Below are positions 14,121 through 60,447 of a stretch of 64,000 bases of DNA, piece by piece. Position numbers and translations under genes: made by a program. Within the stretch, counting starts at the first letter, position 1; the number at the start of each line of letters is the position of its first letter. The stretch comes from a virus: positions 11,795-75,794 of the IMG/VR virus record IMGVR_UViG_3300010413_000014, one strand, 5' to 3'. The notes under the pieces are model-generated. The model saw only the letters and a program-made list of their open reading frames with translations, searched no databases and was not told the DNA's origin.

Positions 14121-14165
14121 CTTTCTTTTTTTCTTTCTTCAGATACTAGGGAGTAAAGAGAAAGA
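14121..14165 (+). repeat. 45-bp element, copy 1 (candidate phage-RNAP promoter)
   Basis: CTTTCTTTTTTTCTTTCTTCAGATACTAGGGAGTAAAGAGAAAGA; exact reverse complement at 60403-60447. Confidence 0.9.
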
Positions 14166-14295
14166 TTTGATAATGAGATAGTTTGAATGGGTCCAAAAAA
14201 AACGGTAAAATGCGGGGTTGAATATGATTTTTGCGCGATTTTCCGCGTTGGGGTATTTTTTGTATTAATCCTCAAAGTATAAAGTAGATATGAGG

Positions 14296-14472
14296 CTAAT
14301 ATGCAAAATTATCTGGATCATCATTATCGGATTCATGTTTGAATTTGATAACCAAAATTACCACAATTGCGAATCCATGAATTGAGAAAATACTCGCTTG
14401 TTCTAGATCTTGTGAATAAGTAGCGAAAATAGTTGTTATTACTATAGCTATTGCAATTTTAATCCATTTCAT
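14296..14472 (-). CDS. Small membrane protein (58 aa, two hydrophobic segments)
   Basis: Read manually: MKWIKIAIAIVITTIFATY...FAIVVILVIKF. Confidence 0.5.
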   Translation of the reverse strand: MKWIKIAIAIVITTIFATYSQDLEQASIFSIHGFAIVVILVIKFKHESDNDDPDNFAY

Positions 14473-14525
14473 GATAAAATACTTTGCGAGGGATTTTGAA
14501 GCACAAATCCCTCATTAAACATCTA

Positions 14526-14741
14526 TTATTTCAAATTATTATCATACTCGTAATCTTCAATCATGTTATCAAGCAAATCAAGTATTGTTTTTGTTGTTGC
14601 TTGTCTTGTTCTTGCAGCACCACATTCATCTTCCAAAATATACCATTTCTTATCTTCTACACATTTAACTCCTGTTAGAGAATATTCTGTACCATCTACT
14701 GCCTTTTTTGTGATTGTGTAATGTCCTGTTAGAGTTGTCAT
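14526..14741 (-). CDS. Hypothetical early protein
   Basis: Directly after the promoter module at 14764. Confidence 0.65.
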   Translation of the reverse strand: MTTLTGHYTITKKAVDGTEYSLTGVKCVEDKKWYILEDECGAARTRQATTKTILDLLDNMIEDYEYDNNLK

Positions 14742-14993
14742 ATCGTTTGTTTTTAATTATAATGTAAATATAGATGTTTTAACAATGCAAGACAACAAAA
14801 AAGAGCGAAATCTTTATCAGATATCGCTCTTTACATTTAATTTAAATAAAGCTGCTTATTCCACAATCTTCTTTCCAACTAGGGTACCATCAAGCTTTTC
14901 CCAATCTTTAAAGTAAGATAGAAGTGCATCTTGCTTCGATTAGAGTCATTGACTCTGATTTTAAAATCCTTTAACTCTTTCATTTTCGTATTT

Positions 14994-15326
14994 TTAAATT
15001 GTAAAATTCAACCAAAACCAACGCTTAATTCTCTTCCACCAACTCTTTGTTTCTTGAGCTCTTGGAGCAGCACAAAAGGTGAATATATCAATATTATCTA
15101 ACTGGATAATCAGAAGACATCCCAGATCATCAATCTTAGCAGGAACTGTATAATCAAGATTACTGTTCTGATGTACAAGTTCATAGTACTCGTGATCGAT
15201 CGAATTATAACCGCTATCTTTACAATATTGAAGATAATCATCATATGACTCAAATACCGGACAAACCGGAATATTTGAAAATGGTTCATACTGAAGAGTA
15301 ACACTAAAATCTCTAATAAACTTCAT
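14994..15326 (-). CDS. Hypothetical protein
   Basis: 110-aa ORF in an operon. Confidence 0.55.
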   Translation of the reverse strand: MKFIRDFSVTLQYEPFSNIPVCPVFESYDDYLQYCKDSGYNSIDHEYYELVHQNSNLDYTVPAKIDDLGCLLIIQLDNIDIFTFCAAPRAQETKSWWKRIKRWFWLNFTI

Positions 15327-15329
15327 AAC

Positions 15330-15782
15330 TTATTTATTTAACGGTTTTAATTTTCTACCAAGTGATGCAAAACGAGATAAAGTAGCATGCAAACGTTCCT
15401 CTGATTCTCTCTTGAATCGTTCGCGATCCTGAGCAATCTTTTGTTTATGGAACTCATTTATATTCTTCTGGGTATCACTACTTACAATCACACCATTCAC
15501 CATAGAGCGAAGATCCAATCGATCAACATTTTTGAACTCATTTACTACTTCATGTTGATCAAATTTAGTGTCGCTCAATTGATATCCAGGAAGATCTAAA
15601 ATCGAGCGAAAATTAGCTATCTGCATCGATAAACTGTGAGCCGAAACACCTATCACATACTTTGCGATAACCTCGATCTCTTCAGATAATAACCCGCTTG
15701 TTCCATAGCAAGCGATATAGTATGCGATCATCAAATCTTCTTTTGACCACATATATCTGTTTTTGAATACTTTCTTAGGCAT
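15330..15782 (-). CDS. Hypothetical protein, possible DNA-binding N-domain
   Basis: WSKEDL.IAYY...SL.MQIANF resembles the N-terminal domain of some HNH nucleases. Confidence 0.5.
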   Translation of the reverse strand: MPKKVFKNRYMWSKEDLMIAYYIACYGTSGLLSEEIEVIAKYVIGVSAHSLSMQIANFRSILDLPGYQLSDTKFDQHEVVNEFKNVDRLDLRSMVNGVIVSSDTQKNINEFHKQKIAQDRERFKRESEERLHATLSRFASLGRKLKPLNK

Positions 15783-15804
15783 GGTTATTGAATTTTGGTT
15801 TAAA

Positions 15805-16518
15805 TTATCTTAATCTTATCTTATTGATTACCTTCCCCATAGACTCAAAGCTACCTTTAACTTTGCAAGTAAGCTGAATAGTCTCACCCTTTTCACCTAA
15901 ATCCTTACCCTCATATTGAAAAATGTTTCCTTTATCATCCATCAATCTAAAAGTAACTCCATAAAAATTTTCCCACTTAGATAATATCTTGAGCTCTCTC
16001 TCAACTTTCTTTGAGTCAATAGGAAGTGCATCATTACTTTTTGATCTATTCTCTTCAAGGATCAGATCCTTAGCGATCTCACCATACTCAGCTAACTCCA
16101 TCATTAACTTCTTACTTTTACAAGTGAAGTTTCTTGCAGCCCAAAAGATGTATTTATAATCCATATCAAACACATCAGCAACTGTTTTACCTGTATATTT
16201 CCCACAAGGAAAAGTGTTATTTTCTCTCCTTGATCCAAAGGTCTCATCTATATCAACATCAATCCGATAATGACCTAATTTCTTCCTTGCGTTTTGAATA
16301 GCATCTTCAAAATCAATTGCCAAGGTCCCTAGGTAAGTATCCTTAATATAAGGATTCATTTTCAATGGACATGAATATAAAACAAACATCACACCTTTAG
16401 ATGCACTTGATTGACCTATAGTTATAACAAAACGTCTAGTTTCATGTTTTACTCCATCTAAGATAGATAAATCATATTGACCTTCTCTAATATCTTGAAT
16501 TTGCTTATTGATATCCAT
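15805..16518 (-). CDS. Hypothetical protein with DUF3820/ExoX-C-like motif and C-terminal OB-like region
   Basis: FPCGKYTGKTVADVF..D.KYIFW. Confidence 0.55.
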   Translation of the reverse strand: MDINKQIQDIREGQYDLSILDGVKHETRRFVITIGQSSASKGVMFVLYSCPLKMNPYIKDTYLGTLAIDFEDAIQNARKKLGHYRIDVDIDETFGSRRENNTFPCGKYTGKTVADVFDMDYKYIFWAARNFTCKSKKLMMELAEYGEIAKDLILEENRSKSNDALPIDSKKVERELKILSKWENFYGVTFRLMDDKGNIFQYEGKDLGEKGETIQLTCKVKGSFESMGKVINKIRLR

Positions 16519-16783: not shown

Positions 16784-18646
16784 TTAACTTTTTGCTTTGT
16801 TTAACCAATCTCTATTGTAATGGTCACCTCTCATTTCATTCAAATCTGCATCAATAGGAATATAGCGACCAGAACTCCTATCATACATAAACCAAACATC
16901 TGCTCCAGCTTCACCTAAGTTATTTTGCTTTACTTTCAAGATACGAACTAAAACTGAATTAGCGCGGCGATAAACAGTGATCCCATGATAACTCATCTCA
17001 AAGAAGGCAGATGATCCTTTCACACTATAAAAGTCAGGAATCTCATATTCACCCGTCTTTTCATCCTTCTTCATCTTGAAGGGGTGAGCAACTAAAATAA
17101 CCATTACACCCATTTGATGAGAAAAATGTGTTAAAAGCCTCAGAATCTCTTCAATCTTTTCATGTCCAAAGAACTTACCTTTAATCGATAGCATGTTAAA
17201 TGGATCAATAACGAGATAACGAAAATCGTGCTCAGCTTTAACTTTAGCTGCTAATTTCAATAGCTTTTGAATATTTCCTCCAACGTTACCGGTATTAATA
17301 TGCTTGATCATATTAGTTACATAATCGTGAGCTACTTTGATAGTTTTCAAGTTATCTGGATTAGACCAATATGATTTGCAAGTAATATTGGTCCCAACCA
17401 TCTTTCGAATGAGCTTTATGAGATGTTCCTCTGGTGATTGCTCAAACCCTATAACTAGTGATCGCCTACCGTGAAGTCGAGCTAAATCAATCATGATCTG
17501 ATCAACCATCTCCGTCTTTCCGTGCCCTGGAATACCTGTAACTGTTAAGATCCCAGTTCCATCAAAGCGAAATGCATCTGCAAAATTCTTCAGAGATATT
17601 TCTTCACCAATTCGATCACCTTGATTGATGCGCTGCATTACTCGCTCAATAAGGTTTTCGTAAGATATTAATCCATCCTCATCCTCACCTGAATGCTCTT
17701 CAGTATTATTTGAATCAGTTGATGTACCCTTTGCATATGCAGTGTAATCGATATCGTCCTCATCCTCATCATCCTCATCTCTAGCTCCCAATCTATAAGG
17801 CCACTTTAATTGAGGTTTATGATTTGCTAATTCAGCAACTTCTGCAAATCGTTGCTCGTTGTCAGCTGACTTCTTGAAATGATATTCTGCTGCATCAATT
17901 ACAAAAGAGAGATCTTGTTGTGGATGTTTGAATCCGTATCGAGCTAAATCTAAGACTGAAACCTGGATAAAATGGAAGTTGTTGTTTGTCTTAGCTGCAA
18001 TATCATTCTCTAGCACAGTTTCAAAGAATTCCTGCGGATCATCCCACAATTCTCTCGATTCATCTAATTTCTCAAGCTCACCAACCTCTTCATAATCTTG
18101 CGAAATCAGTATATATGCAGGCTTAGCTTTCTCATTGATCCTGATATTCGGATCATAAGTCATTATCAAGCAATCGGTTATCGATAAATAATCAACATCA
18201 CCATAAAGCTTGAATTGCTGAACTACCTGTTTCCCGATTTGCCTGTAATTATCAGCATTGATTAGATCTGAGTGAACTCGATAGAGCAACTTAATTCCAT
18301 TTCCAGAAGGTGATATCATAGCTGCTAATACATGAGGATTCTCGTTCATGATATCCTCTTTCACATCTTCGAGATCATCTTCAACGTCATCGATATCAAG
18401 AATAATTAATCCACTTGCCTCAATAAAATCAGCTTTCTTTCTGAATCCATCAAAGAGTCCATGGAAAGCAATGGTAGGCAACTTCTTCTTAATATCCTTA
18501 TTCCCTGCTCGAACTTTATCAATCTCAGTTTTAAAATCACCGTTTTCAATAAGCTCAAGCGCCTCACCTACTGTTATCGTATCAGAAGCCTCGATTTGAT
18601 CGGTAGCGTCAAAATAACTAATCTTTGTCTCTAAAATCATACTCAC
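16784..18646 (-). CDS. Primase-helicase (BT4734/VirE-N-like domain + SF4 DnaB/gp4-like helicase)
   Basis: KKKLP...SGLIILDIDD, SPSGNGIK; VTGIPGHGKTE, FEQ, LVIDPFN, LVAHP, VKGSSAF. Confidence 0.85.
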   Translation of the reverse strand: MSMILETKISYFDATDQIEASDTITVGEALELIENGDFKTEIDKVRAGNKDIKKKLPTIAFHGLFDGFRKKADFIEASGLIILDIDDVEDDLEDVKEDIMNENPHVLAAMISPSGNGIKLLYRVHSDLINADNYRQIGKQVVQQFKLYGDVDYLSITDCLIMTYDPNIRINEKAKPAYILISQDYEEVGELEKLDESRELWDDPQEFFETVLENDIAAKTNNNFHFIQVSVLDLARYGFKHPQQDLSFVIDAAEYHFKKSADNEQRFAEVAELANHKPQLKWPYRLGARDEDDEDEDDIDYTAYAKGTSTDSNNTEEHSGEDEDGLISYENLIERVMQRINQGDRIGEEISLKNFADAFRFDGTGILTVTGIPGHGKTEMVDQIMIDLARLHGRRSLVIGFEQSPEEHLIKLIRKMVGTNITCKSYWSNPDNLKTIKVAHDYVTNMIKHINTGNVGGNIQKLLKLAAKVKAEHDFRYLVIDPFNMLSIKGKFFGHEKIEEILRLLTHFSHQMGVMVILVAHPFKMKKDEKTGEYEIPDFYSVKGSSAFFEMSYHGITVYRRANSVLVRILKVKQNNLGEAGADVWFMYDRSSGRYIPIDADLNEMRGDHYNRDWLNKAKS

Positions 18647-27226: not shown

Positions 27227-27811
27227 TTAATTCAAAGAATCCAAATCTTCATGAAGAGTTTGATGTCTTTTGTAATCTGCAAGTCGGTCAGCAATCACAT
27301 TCCCTTTGATAATAGGATCATTCAGCAACTGCTTCTTTTTCTCAGGATCTTTCTCTTTATCGAATTGGTGACCCTTAATATGCTTCATGATGAGGTGGAG
27401 TTGGGATCGGATTCCTAATGCAGATAAAACTTTCTTCCAAAGATCCTGATTTTTAACAGCGCCTGAAGTATTAGTCCAACCATCAAGCTGCCATCGCATC
27501 AATCGATCATCAGTGAAGGCTTTAACTACATACTCTGAATCTGAATAAACAGTTAATTTGATACCTTCTTCTGCTTCACAATACTTATCATCAGGAATCG
27601 CTAAGATCGCATAAAGTAAGGCAGTAATCTCCATCCGACCAGTTTTCGTTAATCGATAACCTTTTGAGAATGCCTTAGCTTCTTCGTTATTTTGAGGAGG
27701 GAAGTAAGTTCCAAATCCACCTCTACCAGCATTTTTTCCACGAACTACAGCACTTCCGTCAGTAAATGCTGTAATGTGTATATAGTTTTCAAAATTTCTC
27801 GGTTTGATCAT
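27227..27811 (-). CDS. rnhA: Ribonuclease HI
   Basis: FTDGS, RMEITA, SDSEY, NQDLW, HIKGH, GNVIADRLA. Confidence 0.92.
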   Translation of the reverse strand: MIKPRNFENYIHITAFTDGSAVVRGKNAGRGGFGTYFPPQNNEEAKAFSKGYRLTKTGRMEITALLYAILAIPDDKYCEAEEGIKLTVYSDSEYVVKAFTDDRLMRWQLDGWTNTSGAVKNQDLWKKVLSALGIRSQLHLIMKHIKGHQFDKEKDPEKKKQLLNDPIIKGNVIADRLADYKRHQTLHEDLDSLN

Positions 27812-28323
27812 GACTTTACTCCAAATACATTCACATAAAAATTGATCATTCGTCCTCTGAATTCAGCTTGCAGTAAACCTGCTTCTACTAACTTTTCAGC
27901 AAGCTCTCGAGCAGCTATTCCTCTTAGATAATTAGAGGTAATATTAAGTGAGGCAAATGATTCTGGAGATGTCATTTGCTCTAATCTCTCTCCAAAGAGA
28001 TGAGTTGGTTCGAATTGCATACCTCTCAGTTCTGGAGCATCTCTTATAAGATCCATTCCTCGAACAGGAAAAGTGATCACATCAAGTTTCTCATTGACAG
28101 CAATACCTTTGATATCTCTCATTAAAGCTTCCTGATTCATGAACTCAATCTTCTCTTGAAATTCGTTACGGAGTTTAGATTCAATCTCATCCTGCGCAGC
28201 TTTAACCTGCTTCGCAGTATGATCTTGAATAGCTTGATTAAGAGCTCTTCTCGTAGCTTTAGGCACAAATATCCACGCGATCAGATTTGCCCAATAACCT
28301 TTAAATTCGATAGTTTTAGTCAT
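27808..28323 (-). CDS. Hypothetical protein
   Basis: 171 aa; follows promoter 28356. Confidence 0.6.
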   Translation of the reverse strand: MTKTIEFKGYWANLIAWIFVPKATRRALNQAIQDHTAKQVKAAQDEIESKLRNEFQEKIEFMNQEALMRDIKGIAVNEKLDVITFPVRGMDLIRDAPELRGMQFEPTHLFGERLEQMTSPESFASLNITSNYLRGIAARELAEKLVEAGLLQAEFRGRMINFYVNVFGVKS

Positions 28324-28407
28324 TGTATTTGTCTTGATATATTAGTTTAATTGTTATAAAGATACGTTGAACCGATATACTCAGCAACAATAAAAGATGA
28401 TTTTATC

Positions 28408-28463
28408 ATCAAATCGTTGTCTATCTTTATCGGAATGGTGATCTTTCTGGGTTAAAGTGACTA
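28408..28463 (+). repeat. 56-bp element A (inverted copy at 30439-30494)
   Basis: 47/56 identity by manual alignment; core CGGAATRGTGAYCTTTCYRGGTT. Confidence 0.8.
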
Positions 28464-28508
28464 TAAATGATCTAAAAATTTTTTTCGATATCTATTGCAT
28501 AATAATAT

Positions 28509-28534
28509 CGGAATGGTGACCTTTCTGGGTTCGA
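28509..28534 (+). repeat. 26-bp element B (inverted copy at 29667-29692)
   Basis: CGGAATGGTGACCTTTCTGGGTTCGA vs CGGAAGGGTAACCTTTCCAGGTTCGA. Confidence 0.75.
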
Positions 28535-28590
28535 TCAACCATTCCGCAAGAGAACAAGAGAGGAGGAGATCTTCTTCTCCTCCTTATTTA

Positions 28591-28925
28591 CTACCAATTA
28601 ATTCCATCTATATGAAGGAGTTTTAAGAGAGCTTCTTCTTTAGTGAAAGCTAAAACAACAGATTTTTCACAATCTGAAGACATAGTAGGTCTTTCGCAAG
28701 AAACATCCAACATAGCATGGATTATTGCTTCATTATCCTCTAATCCCCAGAAAAATCAGCCAATCGAGGATTTTTTTCAGAGATTTCTTCCATCTCTTCT
28801 TCATCACCTCTCGTAAAGATAGCAACGAATTCTAGAAATTCCATACGATTTGTTCGTCCTAAATAAGTGTGCACCTCACCTCTTCCAGCGATTTGCTCAA
28901 CAATGTAAATTACTTGATTTTTCAT
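28591..28925 (-). pseudogene. Cassette gene with apparent frameshift
   Basis: The 61-aa ORF stops at 28740; a shifted frame from the T run near 28751 (FWGLEDNEAII...DGINW) runs to TAG 28591 beside the terminator. Confidence 0.5.
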
Positions 28926-29010
28926 GTTCTTGTTTGTTTGAATTAATAATACCTAAATATCATCACTATATTTCAATCTAACAACAAAAGAGGGAAAATC
29001 CCCCCTTTTT

Positions 29011-29235
29011 TTAACCTTTTGGTTTTTCTCTCTGAATCTCCACCATCATCATAGTGATTGGAATCTCGTCAGCCTCAGTAATGATTTCAAAATTAAAGGA
29101 GTATTCATCAGGCTGATCACTATATCCACCCATACCAATCACTGAGCAAATAGGTTTAGCTAAATTTTCCTCGCTCATTTCGCTCAATTGAGCAAGTACT
29201 TTTTCCAACTCTTGTTTAAAATCGTTTCCTGTCAT
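29011..29235 (-). CDS. Small acidic cassette protein
   Basis: Own promoter (29264) and terminator. Confidence 0.7.
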   Translation of the reverse strand: MTGNDFKQELEKVLAQLSEMSEENLAKPICSVIGMGGYSDQPDEYSFNFEIITEADEIPITMMMVEIQREKPKG

Positions 29236-29333
29236 GTTTTTGCTTGTTTTAAATTAAACATATCTAAAGGTCGACTTTTCTATCGAAGATAGCAACAAAA
29301 GAGGGGAAAAACTTCATTTTCCCCTCTATTTTA

Positions 29334-29531
29334 TTAATTATATAATTCTTCACCTGACACATTGATCACCACATCTTCACCCTCAACAATATCTTCACTC
29401 TGTTGGATTGAAAAATCATAGGAACAACTTCCAGAACCACCTCTTCCACGTTCGATGTAGAATTCGATTCTCACCTTCTTGTCTTGATCAAGCTTTGAAA
29501 GCTCTTCGATCATTTGTCTAACTGTCATCAT
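29334..29531 (-). CDS. Small acidic cassette protein
   Basis: MTV..LIE.L..LDQD start; own promoter (29554) and terminator. Confidence 0.7.
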   Translation of the reverse strand: MMTVRQMIEELSKLDQDKKVRIEFYIERGRGGSGSCSYDFSIQQSEDIVEGEDVVINVSGEELYN

Positions 29532-29749
29532 ATCTCTGTGTTTTAATTACATTATAAAGATCACCACAGTAGACCAATAAAACAATGAAAAAGGGGATTT
29601 TTTCAAATCCCCTCTCTTCTTTATTTGATGAAAAGTTTAAAATATTTTTGGACATAGAAAATCCACTCGAACCTGGAAAGGTTACCCTTCCGGATCAAGT
29701 GGACAACAAAAGAGGAGGAATTTTTGGTCCTCCTCTCTATTTAGATTCA

Positions 29750-30331: not shown

Positions 30332-30499
30332 AACTCTGTGTTTTTATTTGTTTGTTTTCAATGCTCTAAAGATACGACCAGTAGACCAAAGTAGCAACAA
30401 AAAAGCAGAAAACTTTTCAGAATTCTGCTTTTTAAAATTAGTCACTTTAACCTGGAAAGGTCACTATTCCGGTTTAATTAGACAACGATTTGATAAAAA

Positions 30500-30667
30500 T
30501 TATTTGTCACTCAATCGATTTTTCAAATCCTCTAAGCGACGTGATCGTTCGATTGCTCTACCTTGCTTTTCAGCATTCTCCTTAGCATTAGGACCTACAT
30601 AACAGGTACCTTCATCGCCCCATTTCCATCCTAATTTTTTGTCCTTTTGGCATCGTTTTAATGGCAT
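30500..30667 (-). CDS. Small basic hypothetical protein
   Basis: MPLKRC...GWKWGDEGTCY.G..AK..AEKQGRAI, a common phage peptide pattern. Confidence 0.55.
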   Translation of the reverse strand: MPLKRCQKDKKLGWKWGDEGTCYVGPNAKENAEKQGRAIERSRRLEDLKNRLSDK

Positions 30668-46394: not shown

Positions 46395-48440
46395 TTATTT
46401 CAAGATTTTGATTCTCGATGATTTATTCAAGGTGAATTGATTGCCTTTTGCCCACTTTACATCATAAGCAAGCTCACCATTGAAAAGGATGATTGATCCT
46501 TCACAATCTTTCAGATCCTTCTTGAATCGAGCATACTCTTCAGACCATATCATTACATTAAAAAGATTATAATTGGCTTCGATTATCAATCGCATGAACT
46601 TACCTTTGGCGCTCGATCTCTCGACAGCTTGAACAATATAACCTCCAAAACTTCTTATTATTCGATTATGTTGAGGTTGCGATGCTATTTCGATTGAGCA
46701 AAATTCAGATGGAATATCAGTCAGCTCTTCGACCATTTGCTTGTAATCAATAAAAACTAATCCAGTTAATTCCTTTTGCTTCATTTGCCACCACCATCGT
46801 TCTTCCATTGAGCCTACAGTAAATTGATCGCGATCCGGTTTAGTAACCTTAACCTTTTTATATTCTCTGAATTGCTTTATGAGATTGTTTCGCTTTTCTT
46901 CTGCTCCTTCAATATTCATCAATCGATCAAATGCACCACAAGCTATTAATGCTTCATATGTTTGCTTCTTGACTGCTGATCCCTTATAATTGAAACGATC
47001 AATAAATTCAATCAGATCTTTGAAGGGACCGTTCTCATTGCGCTCTTCGATTATTTGCTTTGCTGTTTCGAGACCAATGCCTTTGATAGAAGATAGTCCC
47101 CAATAGATTGTTTTCGATTGTAGATCAGAAGACATCTCCATATCTGATCCGTTGATATCAGCTGATACAATCGATATCTCTTTAGTGTTGAAGATTTCAG
47201 AAAGAAATTTCAATCCTTTTTCTTTCTTAGCATAATCAAGAGCTACAGTCCAATATTCAATCGGATAATGCACCTTCAAATACTGTGAGGCATATCCAGT
47301 CTTTGCGTAAGCTGCAGCGTGACTACGGTTAAAAGAATACTTAGCAAATTCAAGCAATACATTCCAGATTTCATTGAAGGTTTCTTGTGGACATCCACGA
47401 GATAAAAATCCTTCTTCAACTCGATCTCTCCACGCTTTCAACACCTTCTCCTTCTTTTTACCCATCGCTCGACGCACATCATCTGCCTCCATATCTGACA
47501 ATCCTCCGATCTGCGAGCAAACCTGCATTATCTGTTCCTGATAACACAAAATTCCATATGTATCTTTCGTGATATTCTCCATGCCCCACAGATACTCAAC
47601 AGGTCGTCCTTCATTCTTACATTTTACATAGATCTCGTGATAATGATTCTCCATTGGACCAGGACGACACAATGCAACTGCAGCAATCAAATCTTCAATT
47701 GACTTCGGCTTTAGTGACCGAGTATATCCTACTTGAGTATCTGTTCCGAATTGGAATACATCTCCACTCCATCCATTTGAAAAGTAACGATACACTTCAG
47801 GATCTTCAGGAAGGTTGTAAATATCGGGTTTTTCTTTACCATTCTTCTCAATCAGATTCAAGATATCAGTAAATTTATCCAACTGCTTGATCCCAAGGAT
47901 ATCCTCCTTTAAGAATCCTGCATCATCCATCTCACCTCCACCCCACTCACTAACAATTAAAGGAGTGCTTTGTCCTTTAGGTCGAACCTTTCGAAGTGGA
48001 CACCACTCTTCACCTTTCAAAGTATCAGGAAAGATGATCATCGCACATGAGTGTATTGATCGGGTTTTTGGTTGCTCTAGAATTGAAGGCATCATACGAA
48101 AGATTTGAGATTGTTGCTTGATATAGCGTTTCAATCTCGGCTCTTTCGCAGCTCTTTTAAAGAGATCTTTCATAGAGATATCTTCATTATCAATGATCGC
48201 AGTCATTAAATTAGCCATTGCGAAATCATTGTCGAACTGCTTATCGAGATCTTTCAATACACCCTTCAATTGTAGTGTTGTAAAGGTTCCAACACTACAT
48301 ACTTGAGTTTCGCCAAATCTACGTTCCATATAAGCCTTAACTGCTGGACGATCGCGTCCTGCAAAATCAGTATCAACGTCTGGCAATGTACCGTTAATCA
48401 GCTTTTTACCGACAACTTGTTTGATTTCTAATACTTTCAT
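46395..48440 (-). CDS. dnaE: DNA polymerase III alpha, C-terminal half (split)
   Basis: LPDVDTDF, KEDILG, VFQF, RPGPM, YQEQIM, YSFNRSHA..Y, GLSSIKGIG, OB fold. Confidence 0.92.
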   Translation of the reverse strand: MKVLEIKQVVGKKLINGTLPDVDTDFAGRDRPAVKAYMERRFGETQVCSVGTFTTLQLKGVLKDLDKQFDNDFAMANLMTAIIDNEDISMKDLFKRAAKEPRLKRYIKQQSQIFRMMPSILEQPKTRSIHSCAMIIFPDTLKGEEWCPLRKVRPKGQSTPLIVSEWGGGEMDDAGFLKEDILGIKQLDKFTDILNLIEKNGKEKPDIYNLPEDPEVYRYFSNGWSGDVFQFGTDTQVGYTRSLKPKSIEDLIAAVALCRPGPMENHYHEIYVKCKNEGRPVEYLWGMENITKDTYGILCYQEQIMQVCSQIGGLSDMEADDVRRAMGKKKEKVLKAWRDRVEEGFLSRGCPQETFNEIWNVLLEFAKYSFNRSHAAAYAKTGYASQYLKVHYPIEYWTVALDYAKKEKGLKFLSEIFNTKEISIVSADINGSDMEMSSDLQSKTIYWGLSSIKGIGLETAKQIIEERNENGPFKDLIEFIDRFNYKGSAVKKQTYEALIACGAFDRLMNIEGAEEKRNNLIKQFREYKKVKVTKPDRDQFTVGSMEERWWWQMKQKELTGLVFIDYKQMVEELTDIPSEFCSIEIASQPQHNRIIRSFGGYIVQAVERSSAKGKFMRLIIEANYNLFNVMIWSEEYARFKKDLKDCEGSIILFNGELAYDVKWAKGNQFTLNKSSRIKILK

Positions 48441-49321
48441 CTATAATCAACGTTAATATAGTCTAATACAGCTCCACAACCTAATTTATTGATACAGTAA
48501 TTATAGAGTGCGGGGTGAGTGATCTTCATTTTTTGAAATTTATTTACTTCTGTCTCTAAATGAATTCCGAACATACAAAAAATACATCCCGTTCGATCAT
48601 ATCCTTTATCGTATATTGTAGAGTATTGAATACTAAATTTATCAATATATTCCCAAATATCCTCTTCCTTCCAAATTGCTAAAGGATTACTCACCGCCCT
48701 CTTTCCTTCAAATGAATTACACCCCTGTCTCATCCAAGTAGATCGTCGCAAAAAAGATTCTGAAGCCATTGTTCCTATAAAAGGTTTTAGTCCTGTTTCT
48801 TTTTCATATTTTTTAGCTGGATCTTTTTTGAGATATTGGCAACATTTGTGTGATATAGGAAAAGGGGCTTGAATTAAATATTGCCACTTTTTCGATATTC
48901 TGCCTAAAGAAGAGTTATTAACTCCACTTAAACGTAATTCTCTTAATTTATCGCTATGTGTTGTGCGATACTCATAAATAAATTGAGATTGTTCTTTTGA
49001 GATGACTGGATAACCATACTTTTCAATAACTTGTTTGAAGTTTTTTTTAGGCTTTAACCAAGTAACATTATCAATAGTTTTGATAAATTCTCTAATCTCA
49101 GGAAACTCTAATCCTGTATCTACAAATACTGCTGGAATATCAGGATTAATTCTCCTAACTAAATCCAATAAAACCAAACTATCTTTCCCTCCGGAAAAGG
49201 AGATATACATTTGATCTTCAAAGTGCGATAACGCTGCACTGATAACATTTAAAGAATGAGCTACTTTATATTCCAAAGATTCATCTTGAAGCTCTTTTAA
49301 TAATTTTAAGTTTCGATCCAT
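48437..49321 (-). CDS. PAPS-reductase-family (PP-loop, Fe-S) protein
   Basis: SFSGGKDS, VFVDTGLEFPE, CC..LKK.P, RTGCIFC. Confidence 0.85.
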   Translation of the reverse strand: MDRNLKLLKELQDESLEYKVAHSLNVISAALSHFEDQMYISFSGGKDSLVLLDLVRRINPDIPAVFVDTGLEFPEIREFIKTIDNVTWLKPKKNFKQVIEKYGYPVISKEQSQFIYEYRTTHSDKLRELRLSGVNNSSLGRISKKWQYLIQAPFPISHKCCQYLKKDPAKKYEKETGLKPFIGTMASESFLRRSTWMRQGCNSFEGKRAVSNPLAIWKEEDIWEYIDKFSIQYSTIYDKGYDRTGCIFCMFGIHLETEVNKFQKMKITHPALYNYCINKLGCGAVLDYINVDYR

Positions 49322-49322
49322 T

Positions 49323-50948
49323 TCAATATTTTAAAATTTTATCACTCTCTTGTAAATCCTGAATGAAGGTAATCCATTCTTCTCCCTTTCGCAACACCCT
49401 TAAAAGAGATCCTTCATTTAAAATAATCACCTTTTCGTCGGTTACGATCTCATATGCTTTACAATCCACCAGCTCACCCATACGTCCTTCATTCAAGAAC
49501 CTTGAAAACAGTAGATCGAACTCAAGTGGATCGATTTGAATCAAGCCTAACAAATACGATACAAGTGATCCTCCTGCAGATCCACGTCCAATACCAGTAA
49601 GCAGCTTCTCTCTTTTTGCAAATCCAATGATATCATGCAGCACTAGAAAGTAATCGATAACATCACCTCGTTTCAATACACTGATCTCAGTCTTTAATCG
49701 ATCAACATATCTCTGTGGATCTTGAATATTACGTTCTTTGAACCCCTTTTTGATCAGATGTAAGAACAGCTCTTCGTTTGATTTGAACTGCTCCGCTTCT
49801 TCTGGTGTCATCTTGTATTTAGGGAGTCGTCGACTAGTAGTATCATAGACAAAATTACACTCTTGAACTACTTGATCCAAGTTCTGATGAGCTCTTTTGA
49901 ACAAAGGAATCCAGCTCTTACAATCATCTTCGAACATCTGAATAAGTTCTTTAGCATATTCATCAGAACTTCGCATGTATTGATTCTTTGACCTAAAGTC
50001 AAATGCCTTCCCAATCTTCCATAATGCTTCTCGAGCCTCCCAATCCGATTGCTCTGGATAGTATGCATCATAGATAGCAATCGGTTCTAAGTTACTCGTA
50101 AGGAATTGCTCATAATTATTAACGAACTCTTCATCCTTATCAGAACTTTCAAAGCGAACTGTCTCTAGTTGATAGTATGCTCCTGGAATATTCGGTCGAT
50201 CTTTCCACATCATTGTCTTGGGATCATACACAATTACCAGATCTCTAGAGTTTTCAATCAAGAATTCTGGAGATATAGCTACCTCTTCATCCACATTAAG
50301 TTTTGTACTAAACTTCAGTAGGTTTAACCAACCTTGAAATCCTTTAGCATAGCACTTTATGAGGTAGAATGGTCCATTGTCGATTCGAATTGGAACTGTC
50401 ATGCCGATAATCGACTTAATATCATTAGCTTGACATTGATTCTGAAAATCAATAACGCCTGCTAATGTCGATTTTTCGCAAATTCCAAGTGCTTCGATAC
50501 CAAGAAACTTTGCCTTCTTGATCCAATCTGCATATAATCCCAATCCGTTAAGCAATTCATATCCAGAATGAACACCCAAAAATGCCTTAGTTGGAAGTTT
50601 TTGAACAGCTTTCCCAATGTTCTTTAGTTCTGTCAATTCAGCTTCCTCTACTTCTTTGTGCTGCAGATACCATCGACCTCCAAATTCATACACCCAACCA
50701 TCTTCAGGTATTGAGGTACCTGAATCAACTTCATATTCAAGCATCCTTCCAAATCCTTCAGAGTACTCTCTTTCGACTTTTGGAAGTAAAGATTGAGCTG
50801 GCAAAAAATTGAAATCCTCATCAAATAAAAGACGATCATCTGTTATAATGAGATACTCTTTCTCATCTAAACAGAGCACATCGTCTTTAATAGAGAAGTT
50901 GAGCAGTATTTTTCTACAATACTGTTCTAATTTTTTAATTTGATTCAT
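49323..50948 (-). CDS. dnaE: DNA polymerase III alpha, N-terminal half (PHP domain to palm; split)
   Basis: VHSGYELLNG (PHP), DYFL, GRGSAGGSLVSYLLG...DPLEFDLLFSRFLN. Confidence 0.92.
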   Translation of the reverse strand: MNQIKKLEQYCRKILLNFSIKDDVLCLDEKEYLIITDDRLLFDEDFNFLPAQSLLPKVEREYSEGFGRMLEYEVDSGTSIPEDGWVYEFGGRWYLQHKEVEEAELTELKNIGKAVQKLPTKAFLGVHSGYELLNGLGLYADWIKKAKFLGIEALGICEKSTLAGVIDFQNQCQANDIKSIIGMTVPIRIDNGPFYLIKCYAKGFQGWLNLLKFSTKLNVDEEVAISPEFLIENSRDLVIVYDPKTMMWKDRPNIPGAYYQLETVRFESSDKDEEFVNNYEQFLTSNLEPIAIYDAYYPEQSDWEAREALWKIGKAFDFRSKNQYMRSSDEYAKELIQMFEDDCKSWIPLFKRAHQNLDQVVQECNFVYDTTSRRLPKYKMTPEEAEQFKSNEELFLHLIKKGFKERNIQDPQRYVDRLKTEISVLKRGDVIDYFLVLHDIIGFAKREKLLTGIGRGSAGGSLVSYLLGLIQIDPLEFDLLFSRFLNEGRMGELVDCKAYEIVTDEKVIILNEGSLLRVLRKGEEWITFIQDLQESDKILKY

Positions 50949-56669: not shown

Positions 56670-57437
56670 TTAAACTCCTTTCAAATTATCATACACAATC
56701 ACATGCAAGCGATCAGTGTACTTAACACCCAATTCAATACACCTTTCGTAAAGCCATCTACGTCGAGATTCAAGTTGCTTACGAGTCGCGCCTTCTGGCA
56801 TAAAGAAGACTTTATCGATGTCTGCACCAATCTCAATCACTGTCTTGATAGCTTCTTCGACTTCATCCTCATCCGAAATAACAAACTTCAATTGATAGTT
56901 CGTAGACTTAATCCACTTTCGCATTGAATCATAATTCTTTCTACGATTATCGTGATTAATTTGCTCTAAGGGCGTTACTCTCCGATTCAGCTCTGGAATC
57001 CAGGCTCCAGCTCTAGGTATTGAATTACTTAGCTTTGGTGAGATGGTAATCAAATCGATCATCCCAGATTTCATGGGAAGATAGGTTGTTCCGTTATCCT
57101 CTATCTCAACCTTCAATCCACACTCTTTTGCTAATCCAACAACAGCTTTGAATATTTCTGGAGAGTATGTAGGATTACCTCCAGTAATCATCATCGTCTT
57201 AATGTGAGTGTGAGCTTTAATTAGATCTTCAATATCTTGAAGAGAATATAAGCTATTCTTCGATGGATTGTGATCCCAGGATGTTTCACTTGAATCGCAA
57301 ATCGATCCTTTAAATATACAATTCAAATTACACTTCGAAAGACGAACAAGAATCATTGGTGTTCCAGTACTTTGACCTTCTCCTTGGATACATAGGTGCA
57401 AATTAACTATTGGTAGCTTTTGACTTTTATCTAACAT
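56670..57437 (-). CDS. queE: 7-carboxy-7-deazaguanine synthase (radical SAM)
   Basis: IQGEG, R...CNLNC......CDS, ITGG.P, TISPK, RLH. Confidence 0.9.
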   Translation of the reverse strand: MLDKSQKLPIVNLHLCIQGEGQSTGTPMILVRLSKCNLNCIFKGSICDSSETSWDHNPSKNSLYSLQDIEDLIKAHTHIKTMMITGGNPTYSPEIFKAVVGLAKECGLKVEIEDNGTTYLPMKSGMIDLITISPKLSNSIPRAGAWIPELNRRVTPLEQINHDNRRKNYDSMRKWIKSTNYQLKFVISDEDEVEEAIKTVIEIGADIDKVFFMPEGATRKQLESRRRWLYERCIELGVKYTDRLHVIVYDNLKGV

Positions 57438-58509
57438 GCTTCCAAGTTTTATAATTAATGATATTGTTCACTGTTGATAAATGAATTTCATAATCCTTCG
57501 CTACATCAGCGCGACTCTCGCCATTTGCTACTCGATCACGGATAACAATCACAGCATCTTCATCAATAATCGATCGCTCTTTGTGAACTAAATGCTTTTT
57601 AGTATGATTCATATTTTCTTGATGAGTTACCCATTCCAAGTTTTCTAATCGATTGTTGAGCTTGTTGCCATCGATGTGATTCACATACATTTTCCGTTCG
57701 AGATTGTAGAGAAAAGCCTTAGCTACAAGCTGATGTCCAAAATAATATGAGTCGACTCCGTCTTTCCAAAAACAGTAGTGACGATAACCATTGGTGTGAA
57801 TTGTTCCTTTTAGAATCTTTTCCTGTCGCTCCTTTTTAATAGTTTTAACTCGACCTAAGTTGCTAACTTGATAGTGTCCCTCATAATCAACAACATCTCT
57901 CCAAATTTCACAATCAACATTATGAAGTCCATGTGTGAGCTTCACTATTTGATTCTTGAACCTCTTTCCTTCGATCAACTTATCCCACATTTCTGGATCC
58001 TTCCACTCTTTCTTGATCTCGTCTGAAAAAATAATATCTTCCAAAGTCCAAAGCCACATAGACCCCACATCTAATATATCAGCTTCAGCATATCCAGTCT
58101 CAGTCTCATGATAACGAACACTTTTTAGATGAGTGTCTTCTCCATTTTGAAAATCAGTGTTCTTAATGATCTTATCAATGACATAGGCTGCTAGTAAAGA
58201 GAATCCTTCTGCAGAAGCAGAGATAGGCATCTCGATCCATCTCGCACTCTCCTGCTTGATAAAGTTCTTGAAATGATCTGGCTCATTCTTCCAAAAGATA
58301 TAGGTGTGATCAAACGAATCAATAAAGTCACGAACAGTTCCTTTTAAAATTCCAAAATCAATTCCCATAGCTCCAAAGTCGAGAGCATTAACGTTTAAAA
58401 TTACTTCGAATACCCCGTGATGCCCATGCAATGATTTTTTGCAACGATCTGTGCTACATTGCGGAACACGATGAGCTGACTCAACTGTAAACTTTTTTCT
58501 TATCTCCAT
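57427..58509 (-). CDS. queD: QueD fused in frame to a NUMOD4-HNH homing endonuclease
   Basis: SAHR...C..LHGH, DFG.LK, FDH, HETET; then EIWRDVVDYEGHYQVSNLGRV, VNHIDGNKLNNRLENLEW, HTH. Confidence 0.85.
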   Translation of the reverse strand: MEIRKKFTVESAHRVPQCSTDRCKKSLHGHHGVFEVILNVNALDFGAMGIDFGILKGTVRDFIDSFDHTYIFWKNEPDHFKNFIKQESARWIEMPISASAEGFSLLAAYVIDKIIKNTDFQNGEDTHLKSVRYHETETGYAEADILDVGSMWLWTLEDIIFSDEIKKEWKDPEMWDKLIEGKRFKNQIVKLTHGLHNVDCEIWRDVVDYEGHYQVSNLGRVKTIKKERQEKILKGTIHTNGYRHYCFWKDGVDSYYFGHQLVAKAFLYNLERKMYVNHIDGNKLNNRLENLEWVTHQENMNHTKKHLVHKERSIIDEDAVIVIRDRVANGESRADVAKDYEIHLSTVNNIINYKTWKHVR

Positions 58510-58817: not shown

Positions 58818-58840
58818 ATCTAAAAATTTAGATCACAAAA

Positions 58841-59155
58841 TTAAGCTTTTATTTTCAAATGAGCAAGCATCTTTCGAAATTTTTTCTCAGCATTCTTTTG
58901 ATTAAGCGCCCAAAGTAGAGGGTGATTAGGATTAATTACTATTTTGAAATTACCTTGCTCTTGCTTCTTACTGATATCAAAAGCAATCCTTCGCGTAAGA
59001 TTAACTTGAACAACTTCTCCGGTCAAAGGATTCCAACTATAAAGGTTCTGTCCTTTCTTGCGACGAGCTGATCCTAAGAATTTAAATTCTTGTTTGATCT
59101 CCTTTTCTTGCGTAACCTCAACCTGAGGTTTCAAATCTCTGATTTCTTCCAACAT
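58841..59155 (-). CDS. Hypothetical protein
   Basis: ALNQKNAEKKF motif; in an operon. Confidence 0.6.
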   Translation of the reverse strand: MLEEIRDLKPQVEVTQEKEIKQEFKFLGSARRKKGQNLYSWNPLTGEVVQVNLTRRIAFDISKKQEQGNFKIVINPNHPLLWALNQKNAEKKFRKMLAHLKIKA

Positions 59156-59158
59156 ATT

Positions 59159-59782
59159 CTAAAAATTAAAATTAAACTTTCTTCTGGTGTACGATGATCC
59201 GCCACTTCCTTCTCCTCGAAGCTGCTTAATCATCTTGATAAATACTTTTGCATTTGCAATTGTATCTGGTAGTGCTCTGTGAGCTTCAACTAATGTGATG
59301 CCAAGTTCACTAGCCACTGTTCCAAGTTCGTAGTTTGCTAGTTCGTAGAACATCCATCGAGCCCATTTCAATGTATCCACACTCTCTTCGAGATTGATGT
59401 GCTTAGTAACATCAATCTTCGAATCTTCCATAAACTTTATGAAGAATGGATTGTCGAATTTTTTGATATTGTGGCCAGCTAGGATTGGTTTTGAGTTACC
59501 TACTTTATAGCTATCGATAAACTCGAGACAATTTTTGGCAACTATATCAAAAGGAAGTCCTTCATTCTTGAGTATATCAAGCGATAACTTGGTAACGTCG
59601 AACGCTTCATCAGAATATTCGAGATTCAAATATGGTTGAATTAAACTCGTGTATTCATCAATAATCTCTAGCGTTTCCATATCAACGACAACCATAGCTA
59701 TCTCAGCTACACCATTAATATCTTTCTCTAAACCTCCTGTTTCGAGATCATATACGATCACTCTTTGATGTGGGCTCCTCAT
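59159..59782 (-). CDS. DEDDh 3'-5' exonuclease (DnaQ-like)
   Basis: YDLETGG, GHN..KFD, DTL, AHRALPDT. Confidence 0.9.
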   Translation of the reverse strand: MRSPHQRVIVYDLETGGLEKDINGVAEIAMVVVDMETLEIIDEYTSLIQPYLNLEYSDEAFDVTKLSLDILKNEGLPFDIVAKNCLEFIDSYKVGNSKPILAGHNIKKFDNPFFIKFMEDSKIDVTKHINLEESVDTLKWARWMFYELANYELGTVASELGITLVEAHRALPDTIANAKVFIKMIKQLRGEGSGGSSYTRRKFNFNF

Positions 59783-59901
59783 TTCTTCTGGATTAGATAA
59801 TGTCTAACATAAAGAGATCTTCCTAACTCATCTCTACCTATGCAATATTCTACGAATGGATTGCATTCTACTGTTTGTTTCTTTTGCTTATTTTTCATAC
59901 C

Positions 59902-60201
59902 TCAAATTTTACTATTGTACTTATTTTGCATATATTCAAGTCTCTTGATCTCTGCTTTAGTCATCGGCATCTTCCAACGTTTCATATACTCAAGATTACA
60001 CCAAATTTGATTCCCATCTTCGAGAAGTTTAAAGTCTTCTTTTCTTATTGATCGATCTAATCGACTCTCGATACATCGATCACAAAGACAGATCTTCCAA
60101 TCTGAGCCTACTATTTGAGACCATAATTCATCTTTCAACATAACCATTTTGAAATCAAATCCATTATAAATAATTCCACAATCCTTACATTTTGCAGGCA
60201 T
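59902..60201 (-). CDS. Zn-binding hypothetical protein
   Basis: Likely start MPAKCKDC; ML..ELW...LC..CIE.RL.R. Confidence 0.6.
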   Translation of the reverse strand: MPAKCKDCGIIYNGFDFKMVMLKDELWSQIVGSDWKICLCDRCIESRLDRSIRKEDFKLLEDGNQIWCNLEYMKRWKMPMTKAEIKRLEYMQNKYNSKI

Positions 60202-60222
60202 AATTCTAGTTTTATAATTAGA

Positions 60223-60307
60223 GAGGAAGGTGGGATTCGAACCCACATGAACCACTTATCTATTGATTATTGCTTGCATGAGCATTATCTCAAGTAGCTT
60301 CTTCCTT
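60223..60307 (-). ncRNA. tRNA-like element (acceptor stem + T arm, no canonical D/anticodon arms)
   Basis: AGGAAG/CTTCCT stem, GTGGG-TTCGAAT-CCCAC T arm, AGCTACTT/AAGTGGTT stem; starts about 12 nt after the promoter at 60320. Confidence 0.55.
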
Positions 60308-60402
60308 GTTTTTGATGAGCTAAAAGTATAGCTTTATTTGATCATTTCCAACAGTTAAATTTTAATCAATTTTCACTGTTTTATAATTACTTGAAAATGA
60401 AC

Positions 60403-60447
60403 TCTTTCTCTTTACTCCCTAGTATCTGAAGAAAGAAAAAAAGAAAG
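60403..60447 (-). repeat. 45-bp element, copy 2 (inverted)
   Basis: Exact reverse complement of 14121-14165. Confidence 0.9.

Follow-up and report, generated by a model that had tools for sequence, protein, structure and literature searches.

A perfect 45-bp inverted repeat in the stretch of viral DNA analyzed here (64 kb, hereafter the window) is very probably a promoter for the single-subunit RNA polymerase (RNAP) that the phage itself encodes. We lean toward a reading in which its two copies are strong ("extended") phage RNAP promoters and the right one (IR-R) is a backwards copy that guards the boundary between the late genes and the replication genes. As the sequence-only reading had reported, positions 14121–14165 on the plus strand are the exact reverse complement of 60403–60447 (45 of 45 nucleotides), and the arms reach 63 nucleotides at 90% identity (14109–14171 and 60397–60459). 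By our own estimate an exact inverted match of this length is expected by chance ~1e-16 times in 64 kb of DNA with 36% GC, and the runners-up in the window are inverted repeats of 61 nucleotides at 82% and 40 nucleotides at 73%. A scan of the whole 75,794-bp viral contig, allowing up to 3 mismatches, returned two copies of the 45-mer only. The phage occurs in one metagenome run and in no RNA run; in the metagenome, the repeat forms a separate contig with a depth of 33.9, compared with 16.4 and 16.9 for its flanks, and this twofold depth indicates two copies per genome and not the misassembly of one copy that had been considered earlier.

Both copies are intergenic, as originally described. The left copy (IR-L) lies 168 nucleotides upstream of the RNAP start at 13953, in agreement with the first figure of ~170 bp, and IR-R lies 26 nucleotides past the stop of an HNH-like gene at 60474, where the genes on either side all run counter to the IR-R promoter. 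The claim that no other copy exists holds in the contig for copies with up to 3 mismatches and fails for a third, degenerate one that closely follows the RNAP gene (11499–11556, minus strand), predicted to read TTTACTCGGCCGTCCCT·GAAGAAGG (the point marks the start site here and below). It is oriented as the left copy is (11499–11524; family D12, 11501–11556, 71% over 56 nucleotides) and keeps the TTTACTC box and a GAAGAA start, with a GC-rich stretch at −10 to −1; its placement is that of the ordinary promoters after the RNAP gene in the related genomes G005 and G003. The promoter inventory of the window genome would be two sense copies, one good and one degenerate, and a single antisense copy.

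The phage is a Cbastvirus-like, marine flavobacterial phage related to Cellulophaga phage phiST and Tenacibaculum phage Larrie. Its T7-like RNAP (11659–13953, minus strand; 764 residues; PF00940, E = 2.4e-54), the presumed reader of the promoter, is 47% identical to the RNAPs of these two phages and only ~23–25% identical to those of Autographiviridae. In phiST we identified six co-oriented T7-type promoters (CTTAACTCGATACTATA·GATAAT; six-copy consensus CTTAACTCGATAC(T/A)(A/T)TA·GA(T/A)(A/G)A), all in gene sense, for which we found no description in the searchable literature. One lies ~80 nucleotides upstream of the RNAP gene and another upstream of the replication block; two have an extended A-tract start (GATAATAAAAAAGAAAGGG), the second of these standing before the structural genes (7160), and there are ordinary copies as well. 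With promoters of this kind in the relatives and a cognate RNAP encoded in the window, the original assignment of the element to the phage RNAP is very probably correct.

The strand is another matter. When aligned with the promoters of the relatives and scored with a matrix built from them, the window element reads TTTACTCCCTAGTATCT·GAAGAAAG, on the strand opposite to that chosen before, and takes the form 5'-TTTACTCC-N9-·GAAGAAAGAAAAAAAGAAAG-3', with the 14.1-kb copy on the minus strand and the 60.4-kb copy on the plus strand. Its box, TTTACTCC, recurs unchanged in the L009/L073 lineage, and because the core of that lineage (CATATAT·GATAG) is unmistakable in its direction, the shared box indicates the direction of the window promoter. 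The sub-elements around the box, a TTGAnnnTCAA-like motif before it and an A-tract after it, are collinear with those of the relatives (alignment A3). The box and the GAAG start also agree with the family consensus TTAACTC-N9-GATA, but positions −4 to −1 read ATCT in place of the family's TATA, which counts against the assignment, and the matrix gives only 11.9 bits on this strand (rank 4 of 127,934 window positions). The cross-genome matrix is a weak one. Coding or chance sites outscore the element, at least one of them inside a small ORF.

Identity and orientation are thus probably as follows. For IR-L (14121–14165, minus strand, TTTACTCCCTAGTATCT·GAAGAAAGAAAAAAAGAAAG), to which the exact repeat, the position in relatives, and the matrix score all point, transcription is predicted to start at the G at 14140 (+1) and to run leftward through the RNAP gene into the virion module. 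For IR-R (60403–60447, plus strand), indicated by the exact repeat, its twofold depth, and an inverted A-tract promoter at the boundary in relatives, the start (+1) is predicted at the G at 60428, with transcription running rightward in antisense orientation to the HNH-like, endolysin, and holin genes. From these directions we infer that the two copies diverge from the 46-kb replication block rather than converge on it, so that the description "antisense to every gene" would apply to the right copy and not to the left one, which would fire into the RNAP gene.

The sequence-only reading had instead placed the core at CAGATACTA·GGGAG, with promoters firing rightward from 14149 and leftward from 60419, converging on the block and serving replication priming, genome pull-in, or antisense shut-off. 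That strand is indeed T7- and phiST-core-like (GATACTA GGGAG), the GATACTA matching the phiST/G001 spacer GATACTATA and the GGGAG matching the T7 start, and at IR-R such a promoter would be gene-sense, like the phiST promoter at the equivalent place. However, the matrix returns −1.9 bits (rank 648) for this start, the conserved TTwACTC box is missing, and the A-tract and the TTGAnnnTCAA-like motif fall on sides opposite to those that they occupy in every relative. With converging promoters, the virion module would also have no phage promoter at all, and IR-L would depart from the sense orientation that the element before the RNAP gene has in all relatives. We consider this arrangement very unlikely, while noting that the element may have bidirectional activity.

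The position of each copy has counterparts in the relatives. The RNAP genes of phiST, G001, G005, L009, L028, L013, and L016 are preceded by the element in sense orientation, which matches IR-L in both position and orientation. Conservation in related phages, on which the first interpretation had been made to depend, is borne out for the right copy by about ten related sequences with an inverted A-tract promoter at the same lysis/replication boundary (G001, G005, Larrie, L073/L210, L212/L218, L226, L230, L233, and L237). This boundary has a conserved marker in the HNH-like gene (60474–60977, minus strand; phrog_20279), which aligns with phiST gp34 and its homologues in Larrie, G001, and G005 (alignment A2). 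Among HNH-anchored loci drawn from viral and metagenome contigs, the commonest order, although not that of every locus, is endolysin, inverted A-tract promoter, HNH-like gene, sense ordinary promoter, and replication block. Against our reading, the inverted copy in the window comes after the HNH-like gene, whereas in relatives it comes before it. Within single genomes, the inverted second copy matches the RNAP-upstream element over 78 nucleotides at 96% (G001), 45 nucleotides at 93% (G005), and 24 nucleotides at 87.5% (Larrie); the inverted copy of L073 has its match in the element before the RNAP gene of L009, a second contig of the same sample, and G005 has three sense promoters and one inverted. 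The inverted copy is missing from phiST-type genomes. At the boundary, phiST and apparently also G003 have sense copies only, so that an inverted promoter would not be the general means of insulation.

The distribution of host-type promoters agrees with a leftward direction for IR-L. On the sense strand, the part of the contig formed by the replication block and extending up to the RNAP gene contains 21 occurrences of TATCTTT[AG], and the remainder, essentially the virion/lysis module, contains 4. Poor in host-type boxes, the virion module needs a leftward phage promoter, for which IR-L is the sole good candidate. Between IR-L and the RNAP start codon we read a host-type box (Bacteroidota −7 box, TATCTTTG; 13999–14006, minus strand) from which the host polymerase could produce the first RNAP. 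In the scheme that we propose, host RNAP would transcribe the 46-kb replication block from ~20 Bacteroidota-type promoters and, from the box just upstream of the RNAP gene, produce the first phage RNAP, which would then fire leftward from IR-L (+1 near 14140) through its own gene and the virion/lysis module. IR-R, the backwards copy where the late module gives way to the replication block, would fire rightward (+1 near 60428) toward the HNH-like and lysis genes, probably yielding a short purine-rich antisense RNA. Late transcription could be kept out of the replication block by the bound or oncoming polymerase together with the T-rich tract that late transcripts meet, a barrier that would act on circular or concatemeric DNA. 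This role of IR-R, as an insulator or a source of short antisense RNA, is put forward tentatively, by analogy.

The surroundings of IR-R are compatible with such a role. The copy sits between the HNH-like, endolysin, and holin genes on one side and exonuclease and queuosine-type genes on the other, and faces the 3' end of the late module, formed by the endolysin (peptidase M15; 61763–62206, minus strand) and the holin (62160–62657, minus strand). A weak terminator-like hairpin with a T-rich tail (60483–60509, plus strand) lies 55–80 nucleotides downstream of the IR-R start and predicts an RNA of ~80 nucleotides. It is weak evidence alone, as the hairpin search found one site with one expected by chance, and the weakness of this only candidate terminator and the overlap of the predicted antisense RNA with the HNH-like gene tell against our reading. 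Hairpins stronger than that of the window are found 40–100 nucleotides downstream of the inverted promoters in G001, G005, and L073, where they also mark the end of the late operon.

Could the element be something other than a promoter, either the site of a polar roadblock protein or the T-rich 3' part of a late-operon terminator that was duplicated before the RNAP gene? Read in gene sense, the inverted copy is a long T-rich tract, which in L073 and L233 comes right after a hairpin in the manner of an intrinsic terminator, and a dimeric protein could recognize the upstream motif TTGATTATCAA, which is palindromic in part. The core, however, fits a T7-type consensus that stands six times ahead of genes in phiST, no hairpin precedes the T-tract in the window, and the RNAP-upstream copy meets nothing from the opposite direction that it could terminate. 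We judge this quite unlikely. It is highly improbable, too, that the repeat is a recombination substrate, used for inversion of the 46-kb segment (the alternative offered by the sequence-only reading) or for module exchange between phages, with gene conversion keeping the copies identical and the inverted copy having no transcriptional role. The copies are more alike within than between genomes, as gene conversion would yield, RecA is annotated in phiST and Larrie though not identified in the window, and the orientation of the second copy differs between phiST (direct) and elsewhere (inverted), showing that rearrangements have occurred. But a search of the whole contig gave no match to PF00239 or PF00589 for a serine or tyrosine recombinase, and a single gene orientation was found in Larrie and G005, the two whole-genome relatives having an inverted copy whose layout was inspected. 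The occurrence of the inverted copy at one specific position in about ten sequences argues for selection. The metagenome contigs (k = 31) break at the repeat and do not resolve isomers either way.

One feature that the promoter/insulator model leaves unexplained is that the copies within each genome are identical as far as +26 to +45, beyond what promoter recognition needs. It would find an explanation if the extended promoters were RNAP-primed replication origins in the style of the T7 primary origin or the mitochondrial LSP/CSBII. In such a scheme a short polypurine RNA, whose A-tract and following G-run recall a retroviral polypurine tract, would remain in place as an R-loop; the type-1 RNase H of the phage would trim it, and it would prime a split DnaE-type polymerase, with the two copies starting leading strands in opposite directions. 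The extended copies stay identical well past +6, which the ordinary promoters of the same genomes do not; the first 22 nucleotides of the window transcript are all purine; and an A-tract with a G-run is found in most extended copies. The RNase H noted earlier is indeed encoded (27227–27811; PF00075), short hairpin-ended transcripts are predicted in G001, G005, and L073, and the second copy varies in orientation, being direct in phiST and apparently also in G003, which fits an origin better than a terminator. The promoter is also followed by an AT-rich stretch (26–28 of 36 nucleotides A/T at +25 to +60), although this is weak evidence in a genome of 64% AT, and a purine-rich start is equally expected of a strong T7-type promoter. 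In addition, the phage has its own primase-helicase (16784–18646), and the cumulative GC skew has no inflection at either copy. Priming from these sites therefore seems unlikely; if true, it would make T7- or mitochondrion-style priming a conserved, bioinformatically recognizable trait of a widespread group of marine flavobacterial phages. The T7 primary origin is a promoter followed by an AT-rich region, T7 also has the "replication promoters" phiOL and phiOR, and mitochondria prime at LSP/CSBII. The window shares with these a T7-type promoter, an A/T-rich region after it, and a short transcript that could prime, a likeness of composition only.

As promoters, the copies can be compared with the T7 group (T7, TAATACGACTCACTATA·GGGAGA; T3, SP6, and K11), in which ~23 conserved bp are read by a PF00940 polymerase. 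The copies appear to be built alike, with A/T-rich sequence upstream, a specificity box (TTwACTC in this case), a melting region, and an initial purine that opens a purine-rich transcript, except that the melting region is ATCT and not TATA. T7 has 17 co-oriented promoters, whereas the window genome has two good copies, one of them antisense, and a degenerate one. The phiST system shares the RNAP family, a promoter directly upstream of the RNAP gene, and the division into extended and ordinary copies; it differs in having its second extended copy before the structural genes and not after the lysis genes, and in a block of opposite-strand genes that the window phage lacks.

For the inverted copy, the closest precedent is P001 of phage LUZ19, an antisense phage RNAP promoter that was mapped experimentally, is conserved in 15 further Phikmvvirus species, and has been proposed to block elongation of late transcription into the early genes on circularized DNA (PMC10914365). 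LUZ19 is a 43-kb podovirus of Pseudomonas and not a ~76–80-kb Cbastvirus-like phage of a flavobacterial host; its antisense transcripts are mapped and run into the structural genes, whereas IR-R is predicted from its sequence. Unlike P001, the inverted copy also shares a long A-rich transcript start with the RNAP-upstream copy, and in relatives a hairpin follows within 100 nucleotides. Phikmvviruses likewise have few phage promoters, implying long-range transcription. IR-R resembles P001 in being a probable single-subunit RNAP promoter that carries the motif of the genome's own sense promoters on the strand opposite to all genes, at the junction of late-gene end and early genes on the circular map, facing the late genes, and conserved in position and orientation among relatives.

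The plus strand at 14121–14165 is the exact reverse complement of 60403–60447, as the sequence-only reading had reported, and a repeat finder returns this 45-bp pair (left copy IR-L, right copy IR-R) as by far the best inverted repeat of the window, with arms that grow to 63 nt at 90% identity (14109–14171 and 60397–60459). By our own estimate, an exact 45-nt inverted match would be expected by chance about 1e-16 times in 64 kb of the same composition. Both copies are intergenic: IR-L lies 168 nt upstream of the start codon of the RNA polymerase (RNAP) gene, matching the roughly 170 bp given earlier, and IR-R lies 26 nt past the stop of the gene at 60474..60977. Scanning of the entire 75,794-bp viral contig, which is estimated to be 94% complete and of which the window is positions 11,795–75,794, yielded only two copies of the 45-mer at up to 3 mismatches. 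The earlier statement that there is no other copy holds at that stringency, but it missed a degenerate third copy at 11499–11556, directly downstream of the RNAP gene and oriented as IR-L, with 71% identity over 56 nt. Copy number was taken from a marine sediment metagenome, the one DNA run in which the phage is present, as contigs; no RNA run is listed as containing it. Here the 45-mer forms a separate contig with a depth of 33.9, compared with 16.4 and 16.9 for the flanking contigs, so the repeat is present in two copies per genome and neither copy is an assembly artefact, contrary to the concern that one might be misassembled. Depth in the metagenome run is also doubled at 63.2–63.6 kb, where there are several very short contigs, and is 4.6 at the contig end; these changes within 63200–64000 suggest that strains vary or that a repeat is present, the probable reason why the assembly stops at this point. 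No Rfam family reached threshold over IR-L or IR-R. Over IR-R, RAGATH-27 scored 25 bits (gathering score 76, E = 0.29); because the loci of 11 relatives lacked the match, it was taken as chance.

Every gene lies on the minus strand. In gene direction, the holin, endolysin and HNH-like genes (62.6–60.5 kb) are followed by IR-R and then by a 46-kb block for replication and nucleotide metabolism, which contains a DnaQ-like exonuclease, queuosine-type genes, a split DnaE, an SNF2 helicase, RNase H, ribonucleotide reductase and a primase-helicase. Beyond this block come IR-L, the T7-like RNAP (PF00940), and then tRNA-Ala, portal, terminase and virion proteins. The RNAP shares 47% identity with the enzymes of Cellulophaga phages phiST, phi19:2 and phi13:1 and Tenacibaculum phage Larrie, all members of the genus Cbastvirus, and only ~23–25% with those of Autographiviridae; its closest relative, P0002, is 55% identical. 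Gene order agrees with that of phiST and Larrie, the cultured relatives. Throughout the replication block, and also immediately ahead of the RNAP gene, the gene strand carries copies of a Bacteroidota-type −7 box (TATCTTTAG or TATCTTTG); these two settings have 21 sense matches, compared with 4 in the remainder of the contig, essentially the virion/lysis module. DNA searches of a phage collection with both repeat regions as query gave no matches, and viral contigs gave none when searched with the RNAP protein alone; relatives were retrieved only via protein alignment and tblastn.

Several features of the gene content were observed alongside. The split DnaE (Pol III alpha) comprises two ORFs (46395–50948, minus strand) with a 294-aa ORF (48437..49321) in between; the halves lie next to each other in phiST and Larrie. 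A 360-aa ORF at 57427–58509 (minus strand) has PHROG matches to a QueD-like 6-pyruvoyl-tetrahydropterin synthase at its N terminus and to an HNH endonuclease at its C terminus; it may represent a gene fusion or the insertion of an endonuclease. Very small ORFs form an island at 28300–30500, each being followed by a hairpin with TTTTGTTG(C/T) (families D4, D9 and D13) and a host-type promoter box, and a 61-nt, 82% inverted repeat flanks the island (28403–28463 and 30439–30499). In the whole-genome relative G005 (the record behind locus L029), the RNAP matches in two pieces, residues 17–456 and 454–764, ~690 nt apart (raw coordinates 67491–70491), which suggests interruption of the gene by an intein, an intron or a homing-endonuclease insertion.

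The phiST genome carries six gene-sense copies of the motif CTTAACTCGATAC(T/A)(A/T)TA/GA(T/A)(A/G)A, three of them ahead of structural genes and the others ahead of the RNAP gene (by ~80 nt), the first replication gene and portal-side genes. The T7 promoter reads TAATACGACTCACTATA/GGGAGA, and because of the analogy with it this motif is the putative phage-RNAP promoter of the Cbastvirus-like family. Many uncultured relatives have a homologous gene-sense element upstream of their RNAP gene, for example CTTTACTCCACATATAT/GATAGAAAAAAAAAGAAAAGG in locus L009, TTAACTCCACTCATATA/GATAGAAAAC...GAAAAAAAAGGG in G005 and TTAACGTCGATACTATA/GATACCTTTCAAAAAAAACAGGGG in a second whole-genome relative, G001. 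On the minus strand, IR-L reads CTTTACTCCCTAGTATCT/GAAGAAAGAAAAAAAGAAAGGG. Its box, TTTACTCC, is identical to that of L009 and of locus L073, it has a downstream A-tract and G-run and an upstream TTGAnnnTCAA-like motif as in the relatives, and it aligns collinearly with the elements of 14 of them. When 127,934 window positions were scored with a position matrix built from the relatives' promoters only, IR-L on the minus strand (IR-R on the plus strand) gave 11.9 bits and rank 4, whereas the start sites proposed by the sequence-only reading, rightward from 14149 and leftward from 60419, gave −1.9 bits and rank 648. The GATACTA/GGGAG likeness noted in that reading is real; the core, TACTnnnnAGTA, is partly symmetrical, with pyrimidine-rich and purine-rich flanks on either side, and the likeness is found on its other strand.

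We consider it likely that the repeat is a phage promoter on the strand given here (minus at IR-L, plus at IR-R) and regard a non-promoter binding or terminator element as improbable. On this reading, transcription from IR-L would have its +1 near 14140 and run leftward into the RNAP gene and the virion module, and transcription from IR-R would have its +1 near 60428 and run rightward, antisense to the HNH-like and lysis genes. The earlier idea of a promoter was largely right, but the strand and direction assigned to it were most likely wrong; with the firing direction reversed, the picture of two promoters converging on the early block most likely falls as well, and the copies would diverge. 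Convergent firing is contradicted by both the matrix scores and the collinear alignment with relatives, and the late genes need a phage promoter, so we consider it very unlikely. Leftward firing from IR-L would give the late genes the phage promoter that is otherwise missing; apart from IR-L and IR-R, no good copy of the promoter was found in the genome. The top match of the matrix, at ~28608 on the minus strand, falls where a small ORF ends, before a terminator, and was judged to be chance. A degenerate pattern, TTTACTCC-N8-9-GAWRGAAA, gave >100 essentially random matches in viral contigs and was discarded. Upstream of many promoters with a long A-tract in relatives, by about 25–40 nt, is a partly palindromic motif, TTGATTATCAA or TTGATTTTCAA, often after TGTAAC (L029 6834–6846; also loci L028, L073 and L072). 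It is loose in the window (CTCATTATCAA and CTTGAAAATGAA, at 14168–14180 and 60387–60399) and may be bound by a dimeric regulator that acts on the phage promoters.

Two classes of promoter can be distinguished. Ordinary promoters, without a long A-tract at the transcript start, are conserved to about +9. Extended promoters, which have this tract, number two per genome, one always upstream of the RNAP gene; the two copies of one genome are identical to +26..+45, and the sequences differ greatly between genomes. This pattern points to either gene conversion or selection on the first 25–45 transcribed bases. A role for the extended copies in priming replication is compatible with their long identical all-purine A-tract/G-run start and the AT-rich DNA after it, together resembling a T7 origin or a retroviral polypurine tract, with the encoded RNase H and with the varying orientation of the second copy, which suits an origin; it is nevertheless unlikely, as the genome is AT-rich regardless, a primase-helicase is encoded and GC skew carries no signal.

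In each complete relative, the 450 nt preceding the RNAP gene served as query against the genome itself, and an inverted copy was located immediately after the endolysin gene in G001 (78 nt at 96%), G005 (45 nt at 93%) and Larrie (24 nt at 87.5%). The Larrie copy has a predicted +1 at ~69727 of its record, on the plus strand. In G005, ordinary copies in sense orientation are also present, directly downstream of the RNAP gene and downstream of the HNH-like gene. Boundary loci anchored on the HNH-like gene (alignment A2; 12 viral and 43 metagenome contigs) revealed a recurring order of endolysin, inverted promoter with an A-run of at least 6 within the first 30 nt, HNH-like gene, sense promoter without an A-run and replication block (L073/L210, L212/L218, L226, L227, which is G001, L230, L233, L237 and G005). 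The inverted copy at the late/replication boundary, which the sequence-only reading had proposed to seek in related phages, is thus conserved in about ten related sequences. Its conserved position argues against the repeat being an inversion or recombination substrate, as do the lack of a serine or tyrosine recombinase on the contig and the layouts of Larrie and G005, which on inspection keep their genes on one strand; we give this explanation very little weight. Genomes of the phiST type have the sense promoter alone at the boundary, and the second extended copy of phiST is ahead of structural genes, past an opposite-strand gene block that the window phage lacks. This block (KC821604.1, 672–6348 and 77427–78119) comprises ~17 small genes between the terminase-side small genes and the structural genes and is also missing from Larrie; three phage promoters restart rightward transcription just past it. 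Unlike its relatives, the window phage has its inverted copy after rather than before the HNH-like gene and lacks a sense-oriented phage promoter at that boundary; a host-type box appears to stand in for it. Between IR-R and the first replication gene is a tRNA-like remnant (60220–60300, minus strand) whose T-arm, GTGGGTTCGAATCCCAC, is perfect and whose acceptor 3′ half matches; neither ARAGORN nor Rfam detected a tRNA there, and the only match was to 17 nt of a tmRNA 3′ end (E = 8e-4). A real tRNA occupies the same flank in G001, ~3 kb downstream of the HNH-like gene (L078, 6400–6470).

What is established here is the anatomy of the repeat, its copy number, its conservation and how it is oriented against the family consensus. 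In the working that we propose for the pair, host RNAP would transcribe the first phage RNAP from the TATCTTTG promoter, and phage RNAP would then fire from IR-L through the RNAP gene and some 30 kb of genes for virion and lysis proteins, with IR-R confronting the incoming late transcription. A hairpin lies 40–100 nt downstream of the inverted promoter in G001, G005 and L073 (predicted fold z-scores of −3.0, −4.5 and −1.5, respectively), and the same hairpin ends the late operon, which points to the inverted promoter yielding only a short purine-rich RNA ended by the hairpin. The predicted IR-R transcript of the window folds with no significant structure (z = +1.0), and its only hairpin with a T-tail, at 60483–60509, is weak. 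Read in the gene sense, the inverted element presents late transcripts with a 20-nt pyrimidine, T-rich tract. Insulation by IR-R, through convergent transcription or a promoter-bound polymerase and helped by the T-tract, is the most likely mechanism, which we put forward tentatively and by analogy.

The literature searched contained no description of phiST or Cbastvirus promoters or of the transcription programme of Cbastvirus-like phages, a common marine group infecting Flavobacteriia. What is new is a first working promoter model for their T7-like RNAP, with two promoter classes and a conserved, strong promoter facing backwards where the late genes end, an inverted extended copy kept identical to the RNAP-gene promoter. 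The corrected direction alters all downstream predictions, from the genes driven to the sites of collision or priming, and the promoter/polymerase pairs, which vary by lineage, could serve as orthogonal transcription parts. T7-type promoters are of a known kind, as is an antisense promoter for a single-subunit RNAP at a late/early junction. The nearest documented case to IR-R as read here is the antisense phage promoter P001 of LUZ19, which ONT-cappable-seq placed antisense to every gene; a further 15 Phikmvvirus species conserve it, and the authors suggested that it prevents elongation into early genes on the circularised genome (PMC10914365). Because the same arrangement has been mapped experimentally in these phiKMV-like podoviruses, which are unrelated to the window phage, antisense promoters at late/early junctions may be a general device by which very processive single-subunit polymerases have their late transcripts bounded on circular or concatemeric DNA.
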